A stretch of 64,000 nucleotides of DNA, from NCBI GenBank assembly GCA_965645245.1, contig OZ287074.1, forward strand, positions 1,240,001 through 1,304,000. The letters run 5' to 3'. Positions 16,089 to 27,682 of this stretch are shown here, one piece after another; position 1 is the first letter of the stretch, and each line of letters starts with the position of its first letter. The notes below the pieces were generated by a model, which was given only the letters and a program-made list of their open reading frames with translations, was not told where the DNA came from and made no database searches. A program made the position numbers and the translations under genes. This stretch comes from Massalongia carnosa (lineage: Eukaryota).

Positions 16089-17069
16089 GAGAATATTACC
16101 GCCTGGCGATGGATTGCATCCTCGTGGATATTTTCTCTACGTTAGAGCGGTCTGGCTGTCCTGAGAGGCGGTTGTAATCTCAGATCCTTATCAAGAGCAT
16201 GGTCTTAAAGCTTGCCCCGTCGAAAGGATTGGACACCAGGTATCCTTTCCGTCTCCACACCACAGGCCCAAATATGTCGCAACCTTCAATAGCCTTGATT
16301 TCACTAGGTTGGGGAATAGACACTATCAGACGAGTGGGGGAGAAATCATACTGCTCTTATCATCAGTCAGCGTAGGGACGCTTTGAAGTGCTATTTCATA
16401 CAACCATGGCTAAGAAGCCAAAGGGAGGAAGGCAGGAGTGATGGACTTGTTTTGGGGCCATTGTTGTTATGTTGTTTTCCTCCCATCTCCCCACCCCCTC
16501 TCCCTCGTCTTCAAACATCACGCAACCCACTTCAACCCCCCGCTTTTATTCTACCACTAGTTTGTTCCCAAACAAGGCGCTCTATCGCTGTGGCAGTTCA
16601 TACAAGCACGATGGACACGGAGGGATTTGTTTCTTGTAGCTACATTTATCTACGGTAGCCTCCTCTATGTTAAGTCATTGAAGAAACACGAGATCGAGTA
16701 CCTTTCCCCCCCTTCTCCTCGCCTCTTTTCCCTGTTGATTTCCGCGAGACAGCGAGTGTATGCACGTAGAGATTGGCAATTTAGTCACCAGATACCAAGA
16801 CAAATCTTTGCAAGAAAGGGAGGCGGACGAGAAATTTTAGTTACATATCGTAATGGATTTCCGTTTAAATCTTGCATACCTAGTAGGGATAAACGCGATT
16901 GCTGAGTAGTGCGTTCGAGTGAAGCGATTTCTGTATCAGAGAGGGGAAGAGGAGAAGTTTGTCATTTCCTTTTCAGGTTAGCGTATGTTTAAATAAAAGT
17001 CTATTAGTTATGATCCCTGCTTTGCGCTAACTATAGGAGGAATTATGAAATTCTGTGCACCATCCTACC

Positions 17070-17121
17070 AGGCTAACCAAATCCGGCTTGAAATTAATTT
17101 CGTGCCGGATTTGGTTAGCCT
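17070..17121. repeat. 52-bp near-perfect palindrome/hairpin
   Basis: AGGCTAACCAAATCCGGC-TT-GAAATTAATTTC-GT-GCCGGATTTGGTTAGCCT. Confidence 0.9.
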
Positions 17122-20100
17122 AGTTAGTATTCCTATCCTTCATTCAACATTTCTTAGTATGCATACGAGGAAGACACTCTCTGCTCTGAAAAGACTGGTA
17201 CTCGATCATCTTATTCTCCTACCGTGTTTTCAGATCATCCATCCTTCGCTCATTCTTCCTTCGAAGAAAAACTTATAAGGAAGGTTCTAACTCCATTCCA
17301 TGGCTGTTCTTTCATTGATTCTCCCATCCAGCGCTGCATAGTGATTGAGCTACCGGCGTCAGGTGTTCCCTCTGGCTTCTTTTGATTTGAGGGGCTTGTC
17401 ATGCTAGGCCAATTCCGATACAGCCTATGCTCGACGGTGGAGCCAAGAGGAACGTTTGACTATGGGGTTTTGTTAGTTTTCTACCTTAGTCTACCTCGGG
17501 GTTCTCTTATCGAAATGCTAACATCTTTACTAGTTTTTTTTTCATCTTATCATCAGTTTTCAGCCATGCTCCAGTGTCTTGCTTGCTCGAGTCACGCTGC
17601 TGGTCACACTGGCTAGACATTGGGAAGATGTTTTGCACCTGCGATGGCTCAGTATTGCTAAACACTCTTTGACCACGAACATGATTATGCAAATTCCAAC
17701 GTACTTGATCGATTTCTATGGCTATTGAGGGATAGTCTGCTTTTATGAACGAGCCCTGCCATCTGTCCATTACGTCTGCCCTCTCGTCCCAGGAATTGAT
17801 ATGGACTTTTTGTTTATCTGAGTAGACTAAGCTACGTTGTGAAAGGGGATTTATGTCCCTTTTGATAGACTAAAAATGCTGCATCCTTTTTTCCTAAGCA
17901 GGGTTATTTCCTATTTGGGTAATGCATGTTGCAACAGCCAACCGAGTGGCACATCCACTCAACAACAAGCACAGGGTTACATCGGCCTCATGCAACTTGA
18001 AATTCAAAAGGTCTACGTCCCTTTACCTTCTTTCAACGATCAGCTTTTCCATCCTTCATTGTCATCTTTTGTAAACTATCTTGCTTTGCTAGGTAAAATC
18101 CGAAAAGCCTTCTAGCAATTAAGTCTGTACAAAAATCTCATCAAGCCAAGGATGGCTTCTCTATACTTACAACCCACTGCGAATGAGCCGTCACAGCGTC
18201 ACCGCGCACGGCGAATATCTGACGAAGAATGGGAAGTTTGGCGTGAAAAGCTAGTATGGCTTTATAAAGAAAACAACTCATCACGCGAACAGATAATCGA
18301 CATTATGGCGAAAGATTGCAGCTTCGTGATAACGTAAGAACGGATGTTGCTTTGTCTTAAAAATCGAGGTTTTAAAACTTTCTGAATAACTAAAGATCTA
18401 TAGGGACAAACAACTCAGGCATCGATTTCAGAAGTGGGATGTTAAAAAGTATATCCCTGACAAAGACATGAATATCATGTTATCAGTTAAGAGGAAATGT
18501 CAGGTAGAAGGCAAAGACGTAAAATTTCAATACCAGAGTCATTATGTTGAACAGGAGAGAATAGAACGCGCGGACAAGAGACAGAAAAGACCACTTCTCC
18601 CTCCAATGGGCAAGTGCCATGTTTTTGAAAACGACTTGAATCTGAATCGACTTTACAGTCATTCCGTCGTATATCAAGATTGATACTTCGCCGCATCAGA
18701 ATACCGAAACGGCTAGAAATATTGCTTCAGTTAATCGTGCCGGCATTGGCGACAGCTTAGGGGTGTCAAGTTCCTGCATTCCACTTTGCGGTTCCTACGA
18801 TAGAAGCCAGGAGCTGGGCTTCACCTTCAACACCATGGTCAGTTTGAATTCTGGCGGGAACTTGAAGCTATCCGATGGTCATGACTTCACTGAGGTTCCC
18901 TTAACATCGGGCGACACATTCATGTCTGACGTCTCTGATATATCGTTTTCACAATCTCCCAAGATGAGCTCCAGGGGTAATAATATGCAGAACACCCGCA
19001 CAGCGCACGAATACAGTGATATTCCACTCATGCGGCGACGTGTGTTACTCGGCGAAAGTTCCGCACTGCGCTCGGGTAGAGAAAATAGCCCTTCTACTTC
19101 CGAGATTTCATGGTCTGCATGGCTGAAAACCCAAGTCTACGACCGTCAAGTGGAATATCCGATTCTGCCATTCAGCCTTCTCAGCCCATGAAGCCGAATC
19201 GCCTTGTTTCCAGCGGAGATGCCTTGTCAAACGAAGAGCTCACAAGCAACATCGTCCTTCGAGATGTGAACGGAGAATGCGGCCTGGTCGTGGTGGACGC
19301 TTGGCTGACTAATGCAAATCTTGGTCAAGTCATCTTTCAAGGCACAAATCCTGAAAAAATTATATTACCGCTGGAGCTATTGAGGTCACAATTCTTCGAA
19401 TGCTTAGACAGCCCCTCGTGTTCTTTCGTCCCGAATAGTTTATTGAAGTTGGTGAATAACGAGTGGCTACGTTACGGGTTTGAAGATTTGCTTTGCTGGG
19501 GTTATCGAGGCCTCTACTCGTACAAAAGCTATTCGGCAACGCCAGGTGGCAAGAAAGGCGCATGGATCAAGCACCAGCCCAATTTTCTTAACAGACGAAC
19601 CTCTCAAAAGTATCGAGTGGTCAATCCCCAATGAACCAACAAGCACAAAAGATAAAGTTGCATCTAGGCAAAATGTAAAGCACCCTAACTATTGGCATCG
19701 CTTGCCGTTGGGCGTGCTCAGTATATAGCTTATACAGCGTCAAAGGAGGTTATGAACGTTCTTGATGAGGAGCTTCTATGGAAGCTTAAAATATCCTTTA
19801 TGCCTAAAGCTAGTGGGCGAACGACTGGGGTCTCCGTTACTTTTCACAAGGTGTGGGATGCTTATCGAAAGCCTCCACATCCTCTCGCTGTCATTCTAGC
19901 ACCCCCCAAGCTAATCTATATTGGACTAGCTTCCGCACCGATGAGTCATCAGAACAAAGAATACTATTCGGTCATTCAAACAAAATAAATCACATAAATC
20001 ACTATTCTTCTAGCTTCGGAATTGATATTATAAGTATGACGCTCAATGAAGAAGAAATCCCGAGTGTTTCAGACAAATCTCCCATTCCAGCGAAGCAACA

Positions 20101-20982
20101 TAAAATAAATCGCAAAAGAAGTGTTCGAGATATTTTAATCTACCTTCCCCCTATTTTCTCAAAATATACCCCCATTCGGGTTGAAAACTGGCCTTTTGTT
20201 CCGCTCGTTGAAAACGATTCTCGAAATCCTTTGGGATTATTTCGGTTATTTATAACAAGGCAGCATTGTCGTATCATCGCAAATCATACCAATATCAAGG
20301 CATATAACTACATGGAAAAGGAGAAGGAGAACAATCATCGGATTTGGACTGACACTACTGACTCGGAAATAGAGGTTTTTTTGGGCATAATAATTCTTAT
20401 GAGAATCGATTATCTACCTGCTACAGAGGATTATTGGAATCAACGTCCTGACAAACCAGTCATCATGCCCATTCTGTCCGCAATGTCGCTTGGTCGATTT
20501 CAACAAATCAAACGATTTTTGAAAATCAATAATGGACGGACTGAGCCTATCGGACTTGGTCAAGGACCTGATTGGTGAAAGAAACTGGAACCGTTGGCTA
20601 CTGATTTCCGAAAGACTTCATTGAAACATTGCAGACCAGGAAGTATGATATCTATAGATGAACAGCTGGATGTTATTCAAGGACCATTCTCGACATACCT
20701 TGCAGATTACTACAAAAAGTGCCCATAAAGGATTCAAAATCTACAGTCTCTGTAAGGATAATTATCTATTATCATTTATATTTGCCTCGAAAAGTAGCAG
20801 AATAAGTGAATTGAAAACAGTCAGACAATTGGGACTTTTGCCAAAAGATAAACTAACTCCTAGTGCTTTGCTAGTGATTCAGTTATGTAAAGAACTTTCA
20901 TCCTCACTGAATTATCATCTTTTCTGTGATAATTTCTTTACTATTACGAAATTATTCAATGCACTTCGATCAATCGGAATAG

Positions 20983-21837
20983 TGTGGCGGGGTCACACGT
21001 GCTATATAGATGATCAGGTGACAGGACAGGCCTGTGCAGCCGAGAGTCGGGATAAAAGGGGCTTTTTGCTGTCGTTTTCTCCTGCACCTTTACATCTCCA
21101 CACATACATCTCTTCACATCTCTACATATACATCTCGACACACATCATCTTTGTCACATAGTCATAGTGACAACACATTCATTTGTGCAGTCGTCTAGTC
21201 GAGTTCTGTCACGGACAAGGTCCAGATAGGGAGATATGCAAGAGTTACTATTAGAAAGCTAGGTCTAGGGATAGTATACAAGACGTCCGACGAAGAGCTC
21301 CAAACACCTGAGAAACTACATAAGTTTTATAGCGATGGCTTCCAACTCCCCTATTCTTGACTTGCCCTCATCTCTGTTCCTGTTCTAATTTCCTAACCAT
21401 GATCGCTTTGACCTGTTCCGCCTTTCTCCATGCCGAAGCAACCTCTCTCTGCTGGGCAATCCCAGTCGTAGGCTTGAATAGTGGAGACGTTGAGATTGGA
21501 TTCGGGATATAGGAGTTTGGGAGTGCACTGAAGGCAGCGGAAGAACGTCTGAACACATGGGGTGAGGTTTCAGGATAGTTCGGAATAACGGGCCACGGTT
21601 CCATTCAACATGCAGGGTGGCAGGGTAGGTTTCACGGCAAGAGAGCCTGTTAAATACTAACCCGATCAGGAAACGTGGGAGGGTGCGAGGTAATTCCATG
21701 ACAAGTTCTTCACATGTTCATGCAGTCGTAGACTCATTCGATCATTTGTGGGTGTTCACTGCTCAGTTGGCCATCTATCTATCACGTCGCACCTCCTTCC
21801 ATTAGCACGCATCTTTGCCATTCATCACCCCGTCTCA
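20983..21837. mobile_element. Solo LTR A (~353 bp net) inserted in the transposase
   Basis: TG...CA ends with imperfect IR (TGTGGCGGGG / CCCCGTCTCA); ATAG duplicated at 20979-20982 and 21838-21841; removal restores 'SIGIAASGTAKKG'. Confidence 0.85.
21207..21703. mobile_element. Solo LTR B (497 bp) nested in solo LTR A
   Basis: TGTCACGGA...TCCATGACA ends; 5-bp TSD AGTTC at 21202-21206 and 21704-21708. Confidence 0.9.
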
Positions 21838-23795
21838 ATAGCTGCCAGTGGAACTGCTAAAAAGGGCTCGGGCTTTCCAGAAGAATTGTTGGCCATACGG
21901 GACGTCACTTCAAAAGGAAAAGACTGGGGTCTTCAGGCCCATATGGTGGTCGACGATAAGGTGCTTTGTATGGGCTGAGTGAAGAATAATGGTGTGCAGT
22001 ACATGACCATCGGTCATTCTCCTCAGGACTTGTACGAAATGCACCATATCAATCCGCACAAGAGATATGGAATTCCCGAGACCTCTCTTCAATCTATTGT
22101 ATCGTATTTCTCATCAACTCTGGCTCACTTCATTCTCTTGCTCAATCAAGAGGTTCAACGATCCTTAGGATTATCGATATCAGCCTCAATCAAAGAGTAT
22201 AATCTTCATATGGAGGGATCGAATGAAAACGCTCAGCAACGAGCGATTTACTCATACAATCGTCGAACGGATCGTCACTGGTGATCTTTGTTCATTTTTA
22301 TTTTAGATGCAGCCGGATTGAATGTCTATAAACTTTACTCGCTGAACTCTTTCGATTCCGCGAGAAGACTCGGGATAGTCCCACAGCGAAAATCATTCCA
22401 AATTAGGACTAGCTACAAGCCACCTCCCCATACTAGGGGACTGTCCCGAGTCTTTTCGGAAACCGTAGGTGCTGTGATCCACGAACCTCCACGTGTCCTG
22501 GTCATAACATGACACGAATTTTATCTTCTTATCTAGCTTGTCTAAACCAGACTGGCAGCCAGCTGATTCTATAATAATGTACGTAATTCGGTACATTTCA
22601 AGTCCTAATACCGAGACCGAGCGAAGACTGACCGTGGATAGCCGATGAAGGCCGGAGAAAAGGAGGGATGATGTTCTTTGACAGTCTTGAGGTTTTGGCA
22701 CCACCCCGCTTCTTGATATCAGGCGTATAGCTAGATGGAATCTTCTCCTCATTGCAGGTGAGAACCCCAGTGAAATCAGATGTCAGCAGGGCAGCGGCGG
22801 CAAGTGAGTTGCCCTATCAAAGATATCAAATGTATATTTTCAGTCGTCACGATCGAGCTCGCTAATCTCCCTTTTATTAGACTTGATGCATCGAAAGCAT
22901 TTCCTTTGCGTAGATCTAGAGTTCTTGTCTAGAGTGCCCTCGCCTGAGCTAAGCAAGAACCTGCTGATTAAATAAATGATGAACATGTTGGATCAACAGA
23001 TCCAAAATTCTTCTCTAGCCTGCGCTTATCTGAACTAAACAATAGCCTGCTGATCAAGCAAGTAATGAGCGTGGTTGGATTGATTTTTATTCAGCCTTCG
23101 ACCCCATCCCCCACTTCGCTTTTTACTGTCTCATCTTCCTTGAGTTTAGATAATTAAATAGACATTGTATTCACTTCTTTATTGTTACTTCTCATCAATA
23201 TCAAGACATTCAAGCATCATCTACAACTTCCTCTTATTCTTCACCTTTGAGAATTTAAACCAAGTTATCTCAGCACAATTCTTGTCAAAATTTTACGTCG
23301 AGGAAATCGTAACAAAAGGAGGGTCAGAGAGTGTTCATCTTCTACTGAGATATCTTTCCCTTCTTCAGATGTCACACCTTCGCCAGTATCTACTCCGAAG
23401 TCGTCTTCAGAGCACACGGATATACCAGATTCTTCCAAAACACACACGAATTTCAAAGAGTCCTCTTTTCCACTAGATGCCACATCATCGTCAGATTCGA
23501 CTCCGAAGTCGTCTTTGAATCACTCAGATATACCAAACTCTTTCAACACGAACCGGTTTCCCAAGAGCCAAAAACAAACGGATGAGAATCCATTCTCAAG
23601 ACTTCGCCTAATCTGCTTGCGAACGTAGATTGGGAAAGAATCTACTGACATTCACTCAATTCGACAAAAATTATGCAAGTACTCGGCATCCTGAAGACGA
23701 ATGAAGCGAAGAGTGTAGCTCAATTCTGGGTGATTGATTCTATTTTGAATGTCAACCTGGTATAGACCTCTTATCCCACATGGAATGTCAAGATC

Positions 23796-24281
23796 TTGTT
23801 GAGTGATATCGATCAAAAACTCCTTATCGATAAGCTACAGGCTCACAGTGTGCTGAGGAAATCGTGGTCGGGAGAGTCGATAGCTGATTATCTACAAGTC
23901 TCGTCCAATAAAGAGCGGGTGAACCCGCGAATAGAAATCTTGAAAGATGAGGATATTCGTGATAAGATGCGAAGGCTTTGCGAGTCCGATCGCTTTCCTT
24001 TTACCTACGACGGCATGGACGATGAGGACCCAAACCCGGGCCACGAAATAGACGATTTTATGGCCGGCCAGACTGTAGCGGTTGAATTTCAGGTGCACTT
24101 TCGGAATTTCCGAACACCAAAAAGACCTGAAGGTGCGGTAGATTACTCGTTCCGTCTTCAGAGCATTTACCTTGTTCGGGATCCGTTGCCAGAGATGTCT
24201 ACGCCGAGGAAAAGGAGGCGTGACCTTGACGATTCGATGTTGATTACATCACCGAGAACTAAATCATCCAGAGTTAGTTGA
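23796..24281 (+). CDS. Transposon cargo ORF of unknown function (C-terminal part of a longer disrupted gene)
   Basis: 161-codon ORF with globular composition; the same frame continues upstream past a TAG at 23763; lies between the TIRs. Confidence 0.55.
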   Translation: MLSDIDQKLLIDKLQAHSVLRKSWSGESIADYLQVSSNKERVNPRIEILKDEDIRDKMRRLCESDRFPFTYDGMDDEDPNPGHEIDDFMAGQTVAVEFQVHFRNFRTPKRPEGAVDYSFRLQSIYLVRDPLPEMSTPRKRRRDLDDSMLITSPRTKSSRVS

Positions 24282-24761
24282 AACCCTTTGGAATAGTGGG
24301 TGATAAAAAGGCAAGAGGATTGATAGGAGAGCTTGTCTTCATGGCCCCGATGAGAGTTTGCTTTTGACAAGATTTTGATCGGTCAATGTTGGCGTTTGAC
24401 GCTGAAAGTTCGCTGTTTTATATGTGTCTTTTTATTCTTATCAGGTATTCCTATAAGTACCCAGCAAGCGCCCGTGGGACTTACAATATGTGCCTGTATT
24501 GATGGTGGCCTGATCATCTAACAGATGATAGTCTAGTCTTCTAGCAACTGCAAACTTTCGTACGCTCCTTCCCTCTTTCCATCCATGGGTCCGCAGCGAT
24601 ACTAGCAGTTAGACTAGTCATTGAACTCGCAATCGAATTAGCCATAGGTCAGTTAGTTCGATCTTATCTAGGTGCAAAAGAATTAGCGAGCGGATCAGTC
24701 ATCTGCTTTTCTCAATCATCAAATTTCTGAAGCAAGCGCGCAAATATAATATCATCGTTTC

Positions 24762-24849
24762 CGCCCGTCCTGAGGATCGAACCCAGGCCACTGTGTGACA
24801 GTCTTAATGTCAGCATCCGCTGACACGCTAACCATTGGGCCACAGCTCC
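24762..24849 (-). ncRNA. tRNA-derived sequence (pseudo-tRNA / SINE-like head) with Pol III A and B boxes
   Basis: Minus strand GGAGCTG-TGGCCCAATGG (A box)...CTGGG-TTCGATC-CTCAG (T arm, B box); acceptor stem does not pair. Confidence 0.65.
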
Positions 24850-27682
24850 GTCTCTGGTTTCTGACCTTATTTGCCATCAAATATCAAATATGCTACAAGG
24901 CCGGAACAGCTTCAGGGGATTTTTGATTACGTAATTATATAGAGGGCTGAATCATGTGATCATCAACGAAGGAATAAACCTAATATGAACTTTTTGTGAA
25001 TAGGAATAACATTGATTGGTCAAAAGTTTAAGGTTTAGCGCTTTCTAAACAATGGTTTAGCTTGGGGGGTGCTAGAATGACAGCGAGAGAGATGTCAAAA
25101 GTTTTAATGTAGTTCCGATGGACTCGGAAATCATTCAGAGTATCTTACGTAACGATCTGCAGGGAGTACGCACACTTTTCGACCAAGGGAAAGCTTCTCC
25201 TCGAGATGTGGATCTAGACGGTTTCTCTTTATTGATGGTAACTCATCTGCGGTAGAGGAACAAATAATAAGAGGTGCTAATCGGTTTAGTATGCTAAGTT
25301 CACAGGATGTTCTGAGGTTTTTCGTCTGCTTCTATACGGTGGAGCAGATACACAAAATTGCAGGCTGTAAGCATTTCGTTCGTCATGTCAACTGATTATT
25401 GCAACCTTACTGATATCATGAGTAGTTATGGAAATAGTATTGACGTGATCTGGAGTATTTGGGAGTCTTTCTTCGGGACTCACCATGGCGTGATATATAA
25501 TGTGCAGGAAGATTATACCAATGACTTCGACCAATGTGTTAGCATGTCAGCTATGGTTTTGAATTATGGTTGCGAAATTGAGGATAGTACCCCCTGGAAT
25601 GTCTCTATTGCTAGTCCATTGTTTTCCTTACCATGTTACATGCTATCAAAAGCGCCTTGCTCGACGACAGGAAAAGTACTCGAGTATTTAATCAATGCAG
25701 GGTATGATCTGGAACAGCAAAATCACAAAGGGCAAACGCCATTACTGTACGCGGCGAGGCAACAAAAATCTCATATCCTTAAGTGTCTAAGAACATTCAT
25801 CAGAAAAGGCGCTAACTGCCATGCAGCTGATCCAGCAGGCCGTGGTGCTTTGCACTGTGCTTTGAAGCCTAAAAAGTTTACTCGTGCGCTCATGCCCCAG
25901 TTTAGTCATGACGAAAAACTTTTCTTACTCTCTTGGTTATTGAAGATGGAGAATGACACACACGTAGAAGATTACAATGACGACGGTTTCGACTCAGAAC
26001 CGCTAATATGCGAGAAATCAGAAGAAAGTTGGCACATTGAGCACACATGGCTAAGGACCTATTATCCTGAATTTTTCCGGGACTTCTGATAACAATGATG
26101 GTGAAGACGATGCCATTACAGACCAAACTATTGTCGAGGATGCTGATGTTGGAGAGGCGCGCTCTATTAATGAGCTTATAAGTGAATATAATTATGTTAC
26201 CGATTTCCAGGGCCGTAAGCGTATTATTCGGCATCCTCTAATTGCGCTAAAGAAGCGATTAAGATTTCGACTGCTTCTTTTGCTGCAAGCAGGATGCAAT
26301 CCGAATGTTCTTGACAACAAAAACTCCTTCCCAAGTGACTATGCTACACGGCATGGTCTTTGACCGCAATGGAGTTGGGCCCTTACGAATACTGGATACA
26401 TCTATGATACAATCAGCGGTCGGTGGGTAAAAAAGCCTCAGTGGGGGCAAAGCACCGATGGTTGAGGATTACTAGCCTTTAGATATATGGTGGAAATGTG
26501 GTTCGATCCTCTCGTGATATTTGGTTTAGCGATTCAGCATTGGCTATGTTGGGTTTCAATTTTACCATGATGGCGTATGATGTAGCCAGAGAAAAGTTCC
26601 TCGGAACCGATTACCTCGGGATCGTTCATCCAGAAGTATTTCGTTAATCCAGAAAACAATGTTTCTAACGTTCTACAAATACCCTCGATTTTATCATCCA
26701 TCATAAACTCTCACGACGGATCCAACGATGTAATTTCCACCCAAGAGCCAAGGAAGGACTAAGGAAAGGTCAAGTACTTATTCTTGCTACATACTACAAG
26801 GAGGAGGAGGCGGTTACCAAATGATTGTTGATGTAGTTAAGGAGAGCCAAACCTGGGCGATATAGAGTCAGGACCGGCATCATCATCATAGTTGCGATAT
26901 GTCAAGAAAAGAAAGGGCGATGGATGGATAGGTTTCCTTCCTATATGAAACAGCGTCAAATCAAAAACCCCCTTCAGCTTTTAGATGAATGTCCTTTTCA
27001 CGTCGATTTTTATTTGCCATCTATATAACTCACCCTCTATACTCCGTTTTACATTCCACGAATCACCTAACGTCACGTCCCGTCCCATCATGATGCATCA
27101 GTCCTCGAGTTGATCGGAAATGAAATGGAACTTGATAAGTTCCTTCCCCCCTTTTCTGGTTGGTTATTTGTTAGGTAGCTTGAATATTTCATTCGTTACC
27201 GTTTTCAGGTCCCATCTCCCGTCCCCAGGCCCAGGTCCTTTCTTTCGGGATGAAAAGGGGGAGGGAGGGGGAGAAATTCATTCCCCCATCATCCACCCAT
27301 ACCTACCTACCTACCTACGCCCTTCCCACTCTTCACCTCAAATCAACTCACTTCATCCCCCCCGGAGTCCGCGCTGTTCCCGTTCCCCTGCTGATCCTGC
27401 TCCCGGTCCTCTCGCCTCTTCGCTGGAGCAAATAAAAAGAAACTGGTCTGCACATAGGGATAGTGATAGGGATATCAATAGAGATAAGGTAGGTAAGCAG
27501 GTAGGTAAGACTATGAAACATATAGTAGACAGCCGCCTTTTCGCTCTCAAAGTCGTTCGTAATTTACATATCTCAACCATGCATACGCCTTCGCTAGACA
27601 AACCCCGACTCATCCCTTCTTCACCAGCCAACCAATCCCCCCGCCCCAACCCCCCCCCCTCTAACCCTCCCATCCCACTACC

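Follow-up and report, generated by a model that had tools for sequence, protein, structure and literature searches.

Where does a piggyBac-type transposon end, and into what kind of target was it inserted, when no TTAA adjoins the inverted repeat that brackets it? The question is raised by an element of Massalongia carnosa that lies within a 64,000-nucleotide stretch of contig OZ287074.1 (GenBank assembly GCA_965645245.1, positions 1,240,001 to 1,304,000 of the forward strand); this whole stretch was analyzed and is referred to as the window, and all coordinates count from its first nucleotide. A perfect 33-bp inverted repeat brackets 5.2 kb of DNA that holds the remnants of a piggyBac-superfamily transposase. 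We consider it probable, at roughly 60%, that this is a single element with long terminal inverted repeats (TIRs), that its tips lie at 19877/19878 and 25094/25095, instead of the 19882/19884 of an original prediction made from the same DNA, and that it is a decayed ascomycete piggyBac-like copy inserted at a non-TTAA site.

Canonical piggyBac elements are described as carrying 13-bp TIRs together with subterminal repeats, integrating almost only at TTAA and producing a 4-bp duplication (PMC7351741, PMC5381638). In the solved structure, the spacing of the active sites is reported to mandate a 4-bp offset, and T. ni piggyBac is reported to recognize the flanking bases through a Tyr-Asn pair (PMC7351741). 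C is given as the one conserved TIR base of piggyBac elements, and the rare non-TTAA flanks encountered in a survey of 157 elements were ascribed to mutation (PMC5381638). Transposons of the DDE_Tnp_1_7 type are on record in Pezizomycotina (PMC5751038). In 2013, Ti_tr1 was reported from the MAT1-2 idiomorph of Tuber indicum as an element with a piggyBac-type transposase, 52-bp TIRs and a TA target-site duplication (TSD), its description giving no TTAA (PMC3864998). The fungus P. brasiliensis is reported to harbor a piggyBac-like element with a 50-bp TIR and no subterminal repeats, placed in structural group SG1 (PMC5381638).

Two open reading frames (ORFs) of the window element match the Pfam family DDE_Tnp_1_7, the one at 19814-20578 with E=2.4e-15 and the one at 20658-21161 with E=1.4e-5. 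A phmmer search with residues 1-180 against 1.84 billion representatives returned 824 matches at E≤0.001, and tblastn against the window aligned 149 of the 150 listed relatives, with all 188 high-scoring segment pairs (HSPs) falling on the plus strand within 19964-22401. A single piece of the window transposase gives weak matches to solved proteins (E=0.005-0.007); a profile built from 10 relatives of full length finds the solved transposases piggyBat (1e-72) and T. ni piggyBac (9e-53), and this match takes in the C-terminal Cys-rich domain. Judged by these homologies, the transposase is a member of the piggyBac superfamily, and its descent from that family is not in doubt. In the alignment of the relatives, the catalytic Asp columns D385 and D514 show no variation and D293 almost none, and the motif at the D514 column aligns with GGVD in the solved transposases of piggyBac and piggyBat. 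The Tyr-Asn pair that precedes the third Asp is invariant among the relatives, is kept in the window copy and aligns with the pair of T. ni piggyBac.

The gene itself is broken into three pieces on the plus strand. The N-terminal piece (20036-20683), detected by Pfam, phmmer and tblastn, starts with an ATG at 20036 and includes the first catalytic Asp (20657-20659); an in-frame TGA at 20576-20578 replaces a Trp in the WWKK motif of the relatives. A frameshift between about 20668 and 20683, across which the tblastn alignments pass from frame +2 to +3, leads into the middle piece (20670-20982), which is covered by the second Pfam match and holds the second catalytic Asp (20928-20930). The C-terminal DDE part (21838-22401), aligned by tblastn with the relatives P0053 and P0067, contains further stops at 21976-21978 and 22282-22284, three in-frame stops in total, and the tblastn alignments show the third catalytic Asp changed to Asn at 22222-22224. 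A C-terminal Cys-rich domain is present in the full-length relatives P0053 and P0046; in the window copy, none of the 188 HSPs from the 149 relatives extends past 22401, and the tail was either lost or has diverged past detection. The copy is catalytically dead. Repeat-induced point mutation was considered as the cause of decay and rejected, the element having a TA/AT of 0.67 and a (CA+TG)/(AC+GT) of 1.29, values similar to those of the window around it.

Two observations concern the N-terminus of the protein. At the extreme N-terminus, the relatives P0001-P0010, P0045, P0053 and P0067 and the window at 20036-20074 have in common the conserved pattern M-x-x-[ND]-E-x-E-I-x-[GS]-x-S-D. The best phmmer match and closest relative, P0001 (216 aa), is 92% identical over residues 1-156, to which the match is confined, with unrelated sequence after them, which implies that at least one more copy of the family, also truncated or interrupted, exists in some sequenced genome.

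The transposase gene is further split by an 855-bp insert (20983-21837) with termini TGTGG...GTCTCA, flanked by the direct repeat (A)ATAG at 20978-20982 and 21837-21841; it thus combines the TG...CA ends and the 4-6-bp target duplication of a solo long terminal repeat (LTR). The proteins of the relatives run unbroken across 20982/21838, no tblastn match of theirs falls between about 21100 and 21699, and excising the insert together with one repeat yields SIGIAASGTAKKGSGF, as in the homologs. An intron was rejected as the explanation of this interruption, since no GT-AG pair fits the frame of the homologs, whereas an insert plus the (A)ATAG repeat fits exactly. Elsewhere in the 64-kb window blastn found nothing similar to the insert, and its two minus-strand ORFs match no Pfam family. 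Its ends suggest that it is most likely the solo LTR of a retrotransposon, and the presence of such a nested insert indicates that the piggyBac copy is old.

At the outer ends, blastn aligns 19882-19914 with 25089-25057 at 33/33 identity, and the 26-nt core of this inverted repeat occurs exactly twice in the window, while two matches were obtained in 0 of 100 shuffles. The left flank of the repeat ends in ...CCACATC and the right one opens with AGATGTC..., and neither a TTAA nor a direct repeat adjoins it at either end. On these points the original prediction was right: it had placed the perfect 33-bp repeat here, noted the missing TTAA and direct repeat, assigned the element to the piggyBac type and called its ends atypical, as they are in lacking a TTAA flank and in the length of the TIRs. 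The outward extension of the repeat by 5 nt, the broken transposase gene and the nested, unrelated 855-bp element go beyond it.

The repeat continues in both directions from the perfect core. Inward, a repeat search lengthens it to 38 nt at 95%, the gapped extension adding 5 nt (19915-19919 on the left side) with two mismatches. Outward, across a 1-nt gap, ACATC (19877-19881) pairs with GATGT (25091-25095), the gap being one extra right-hand base in a (TC)n run; a 5-nt inverted match this near two unrelated junctions was found in 0.0043 (0.43%) of 200,000 random junction pairs. The resulting left TIR spans 19877-19919 on the plus strand and the right TIR 25052-25095 on the minus strand, with perfect cores at 19882-19914 and 25057-25089, and the two differ at 3 of about 44 positions, in keeping with an old copy that also carries several coding lesions. 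This alignment points to a TIR length of probably about 39-44 bp; whether counted as 33 bp perfect or about 44 bp gapped, the TIR is well above the short-TIR range of piggyBac, about 12-19 bp. A still longer, TA-flanked TIR reaching to 19865/25104 was rejected on two grounds: of 14 outward positions no more than 6 match, and the bases concerned have the codon usage of host exon. The first base of the TIR is C if the tip lies at 19878, 19882 or 19884, and A if it lies at 19877; CAC is present only at the inner position 19900. From this geometry, which like the missing TTAA, the lesions and the family of the transposase is a matter of direct observation, we infer the exact tips of the element and the chemistry of its insertion.

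Subterminal copies of TIR motifs are limited to scattered 7-8-mers. Short direct repeats of other kinds lie just inside the TIRs, CTAGCTTC twice on the left (19926-19933 and 20010-20017) and GGTTTAGC twice on the right (25032-25039 and 25054-25061, 22 nt apart); unlike between the two ends, they are possible candidates for extra transposase-binding sites. No further copy of the element is present in the window, where the two ends alone match TIR patterns when as many as 3 mismatches are allowed and self-blastn of the element with both flanks finds no other copy, and an exact 25-nt TIR scan of bacterial and archaeal genome contigs gave 0 matches. Locus L001, which a protein-seeded contig scan had placed on a 60% GC contig of a bacterial metagenome-assembled genome, proved spurious, as 0 of 150 relatives match it by tblastn at 1e-5.

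What, then, was the target? We enumerated the registers that let the four outermost bases at one end of the element pair with the four at the other, allowing duplications of 0-10 bp, and found TTAA absent at both ends in every register. The perfect "duplications" that appear (CG, GC, AT, TA and CTAG) are all palindromes within the inverted repeat and therefore arise automatically. The sole candidate outside the repeat is a 3-of-4 match around 19878-25094, between TCCA at 19874-19877 and TCAA at 25095-25098, which in one of the two leading readings would be the left and right copies of a decayed 4-bp target duplication.

The host DNA offers a second test. Codon usage remains of the coding type up to the junction on both sides: the left flank (19701-19876, 58 codons) scores +16.9 in the frame whose codon starts are divisible by 3, and -14.4 and -34.3 in the others, and the right flank scores +14.4 over 50 codons in the frame of 25097. 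The element thus interrupts an exon of one Clr5/ankyrin gene on the plus strand, with an upstream part at 18116-19876, open in frame up to the insertion according to an exon map by sliding codon score, and a downstream part at 25096-26089. Further upstream, the coding signal shifts frame near 18650 and near 19100, in both cases without a good GT splice donor. Because the ancestral frame ought to survive in a true empty site, barring a later indel at the junction, the reading frame can be used to judge candidate excisions even if the gene is a pseudogene; any removal whose length leaves a remainder of 2 on division by 3 passes. Excising 19877-25095, the full gapped repeat, yields ...AYRKPPKSFNVVPMD..., with the host frame open into the ankyrin part. 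The frame is not restored by removal of the exact 33-bp repeat, by removal of an inner element between CTAG copies, which also leaves a TGA, or by the TCCA/TCAA model, and the test counts against the inner element and the 4-bp duplication.

The frame had also led the original prediction to its own choice, a 31-bp TIR (CTCGCTG...CAGCGAG) bounding an element at 19884-25087 that was joined bluntly into the middle of a host CTAG without duplication. The arithmetic is right, since removal of 19884-25087 joins cct|aga and restores the host frame (...KPPHPRDVKSF...), and no direct repeat flanks the element. As removal of 19877-25095 restores the frame equally well, however, the frame argument cannot single out CT|AG, and insertion there is not established. 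This choice of ends shortens the perfect 33-bp repeat by 2 bp on each side solely to satisfy the frame, and the ACATC/GATGT then remaining in the host must be coincidental, with a probability of about 0.004. If insertion was truly without a TSD, the cut-and-paste DNA transposon Spy would be a functional analogue; it is classified as a PIF/Harbinger type. Blunt joining has no known example among piggyBac-family enzymes as these are described (PMC7351741), and Spy, whose empty sites show no target duplication and which is called unique for this, is the only eukaryotic cut-and-paste group reported to lack TSDs (PMC4122938). Insertion at CT|AG, which predicts the empty site ...CATCCT|AGAGATG..., therefore appears decidedly unlikely.

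The original prediction had also raised the possibility of a smaller element at 19900-25071 (CACCCCCC...GGGGGGTG), with a duplication of CTAG, at the center of a 32-bp palindrome. Such an element might instead have duplicated TA, as in Tuber, and in both cases the palindrome, of at least 32 bp, would have to be pre-existing. CTAG+CACCCCCC...GGGGGGTG+CTAG does sit in a 14+4+14 palindrome, and CTAG forms a perfect 4-bp repeat followed by CAC, the classic piggyBac start; a palindromic tetramer followed by CAC or CCC occurs in only 3.8% of random 33-mers of the window, which lends mild support. The TIR would measure about 15-20 bp, in line with the usual piggyBac length of 14 ± 2 bp (PMC5381638), and the TA at the center of CTAG fits the TA duplication reported for Ti_tr1 (PMC3864998), although the TIRs of the Tuber element are given as 52 bp, not 15 bp. 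A palindromic tetramer of any kind, on the other hand, occurs in 79% of random 33-mers of the window, so that an apparent CTAG TSD is expected by chance. Such an element also requires that a perfect 14+4+14 palindrome (20+4+20 with the gap) already existed in a coding exon, whereas the window contains 0 perfect palindromes with arms of at least 10 nt, and the outer arm (14-19 bp, CTCTCGCTGTCATT and beyond) is found nowhere else in it. Its predicted empty site, out of frame and with the TGA, would further demand a second, earlier insertion at the same point. Chance, the palindrome and the frame together make an inner element very improbable.

A third explanation is that the junctions have been altered, a normal duplication of any sequence having been lost through a small deletion, imprecise repair or flank indels, which would leave the flanks uninformative on the target. 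The copy is old, with its nested solo-LTR-like insert, three stops, a frameshift and an indel within the TIR; the two frame changes of the host gene without good donors make nearby indels probable, and slippage-prone A4/T4 runs open the right flank. Against such alteration stand the coding-type codon usage retained in both flanks up to the junction and the simple removal that restores the frame, which random loss would manage 1 time in 3, and no positive trace of a lost repeat is seen. We regard this explanation as unlikely.

The reading that we favor remains a single long-TIR element with tips at 19877/19878 and 25094/25095. It would be a non-autonomous, decayed copy of an ascomycete piggyBac-like DNA transposon with TIRs of about 39-44 bp, moved by cut-and-paste through a DDD piggyBac-family transposase, either its own enzyme before decay or that of a relative, into an exon of the Clr5/ankyrin gene at a non-TTAA site. 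The 1-nt indel and the two mismatches in the TIRs would have gathered after insertion, and the stops, the frameshift and the Asp-to-Asn change may date either from after insertion or from before the last jump. A retroelement would have entered the transposase gene and then collapsed to the solo-LTR-like remnant.

Two versions of this insertion are about equally likely and inseparable with one copy. In the first, an ordinary 4-bp staggered piggyBac integration would have occurred at a T-C-(A/C)-A site, now TCCA...TCAA, with the predicted empty site ...AAGCC-TC[A/C]A-AAGTT...; the element at 19878-25094 is then flanked by the 3-of-4 match and its TIR begins with C. The C-start TIR, the kept Tyr-Asn pair and the 4-bp offset geometry, as described for piggyBac enzymes, count for this version. 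In the second, integration would have taken place between ...CCTCC and CAAAAG... without any duplication, and the predicted empty site is ...AAGCCTCC|CAAAAGTT... (AAGCCTCC|CAAAAG...); the exact in-frame rejoining after removal of 19877-25095 counts for it. A larger proposition built on the second version, that an ascomycete piggyBac-family clade abandoned TTAA and that its member integrated here with zero target duplication, removal of 19877-25095 rejoining the exon in frame, we advance only tentatively, as a possibility of well below even odds.

Several points weigh against the favored reading. All claims on tips and target rest on one junction pair in one copy. The outward extension of the TIR holds only if an indel is assumed, and a palindromic target in the host could account for ACATC/GATGT instead. 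The version with a 4-bp duplication breaks the host frame, which then meets a stop two codons later, and random junctions give a 3-of-4 match in 5-10% of cases (a chance of 0.052 if one register is considered, 0.10 if two are). The version without duplication would be without precedent in the superfamily and conflicts with the 4-bp offset reported for the transpososome (PMC7351741). Ti_tr1, the only described ascomycete relative, is reported to make TA duplications, and no TA adjoins these ends. Finally, the two donor-less frame changes suggest that the host gene may be a decaying pseudogene; that status alone does not void the frame test, though a small later indel may have occurred at the junction.

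How does the element compare with known systems? Its likeness to Ti_tr1, as judged from the published description, extends to the ascomycete host, the DDE_Tnp_1_7 transposase, the very long TIRs (52 bp there; 33 perfect or about 44 gapped here) and the lack of TTAA. Ti_tr1 is described as 2,351 bp long, with an apparently intact 566-aa, three-exon gene, whereas the window copy is 5.2 kb long and broken, with a nested insert and 2.65 kb of extra 3' sequence; TA duplications are reported for Ti_tr1, whereas the window copy has no TA at its outer ends, and the sole TA in its repeat is the center of the internal CTAG. The P. brasiliensis element, again as described, is likewise fungal and piggyBac-like, with an exceptionally long TIR. 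With T. ni piggyBac (6x67/6x68) and piggyBat (9c0f), the window element shares the superfamily, the DDD motifs (in its relatives), the Tyr-Asn pair and the Cys-rich domain (in full-length relatives), and it differs from both in a TIR of at least 33 bp and the lack of TTAA. Spy, by its description, belongs to another transposase superfamily, occurs in invertebrate animals only, uses a fixed AAA|TTT target and has no sequence relation to the window copy, whose transposase is piggyBac-type and whose flanks read CCTCC|CAAAAG or CT|AG.

A literature search for CTAG-targeting or TSD-less piggyBac elements found no report, and one for further ascomycete elements of this kind returned nothing beyond the report from Tuber and the remark on P. 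brasiliensis. The element is a further member of a poorly described, already reported kind, ascomycete and piggyBac-like with long TIRs and no TTAA. The distinct fungal piggyBac lineage that the original prediction had suggested as possible thus has precedents, Ti_tr1 and the 50-bp TIR of P. brasiliensis as these are described.

Beyond the transposase, positions 22402-25051 form a 3' region of 2.65 kb without transposase similarity. It contains two pairs of ~75-nt repeats, at 22912-23073 (72%) and 23367-23549 (77%), and an ORF of 171 aa at 23766-24281. None of its 12 scanned ORFs of at least 60 aa matches a Pfam family, the 171-aa ORF finds unnamed clusters only in the ESM Atlas, with recognition under the usual level, and Rfam has no match over 16500-27500. 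The region may represent cargo, a fragment captured from a host or additional nested debris.

In the host gene, Pfam recognizes Clr5 at the N-terminus (18116-18334, E=2.9e-6, 27.8 bits against a cut-off of 22.3) and ankyrin repeats in the downstream part (25316-26089, Ank_4 at 6.4e-8 and Ank_2 at 7.1e-8), a part that reaches 26260 in a wider delimitation of the gene. Protein searches with the left ORF 19089-19631, the 65 codons before the junction and Clr5 exon 2 found no homologs of the host gene; they covered longer proteins only, and the blank is weak evidence. Long ORFs of the window carry Kei1, Nop53, MYST, ESF1 and Nipped-B domains, gene content by which the window is identified as ascomycete-type nuclear DNA, and it is on this content, not on protein matches, that the transposase clade is labeled fungal. 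Located 2.8 kb upstream of the element, a 58-bp imperfect palindrome (17067-17124) has 29-nt arms that are 90% complementary, no spacer and a TTAA center; its sequence is unrelated to the TIR and may represent either a hairpin or a small foldback element.

A single dead copy is insufficient for a new target rule, and taken alone the element is a fossil transposon of an ordinary sort, whose insertion knocked out a Clr5/ankyrin gene. Following the truffle element, it makes a second ascomycete case in which a piggyBac-type transposon combines very long TIRs with the absence of TTAA. Elements of this kind would be excluded by the filter described for a recent mining study of large scale, which retained only those with a TTAACC-like flank (PMC13461360), and lineages that lack TTAA are systematically overlooked where a TTAA-like flank is required. 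piggyBac is valued as a tool for its TTAA integration and seamless excision. If integration without a TSD proved true here, this would be its first instance in the superfamily, where the geometry of the transpososome is believed to enforce a 4-bp offset. Should family-wide data confirm relaxed TNNA, TA or no duplication, target choice and stagger would be evolvable within the superfamily, and such a result would direct attention to enzymes in nature that follow other rules of insertion.

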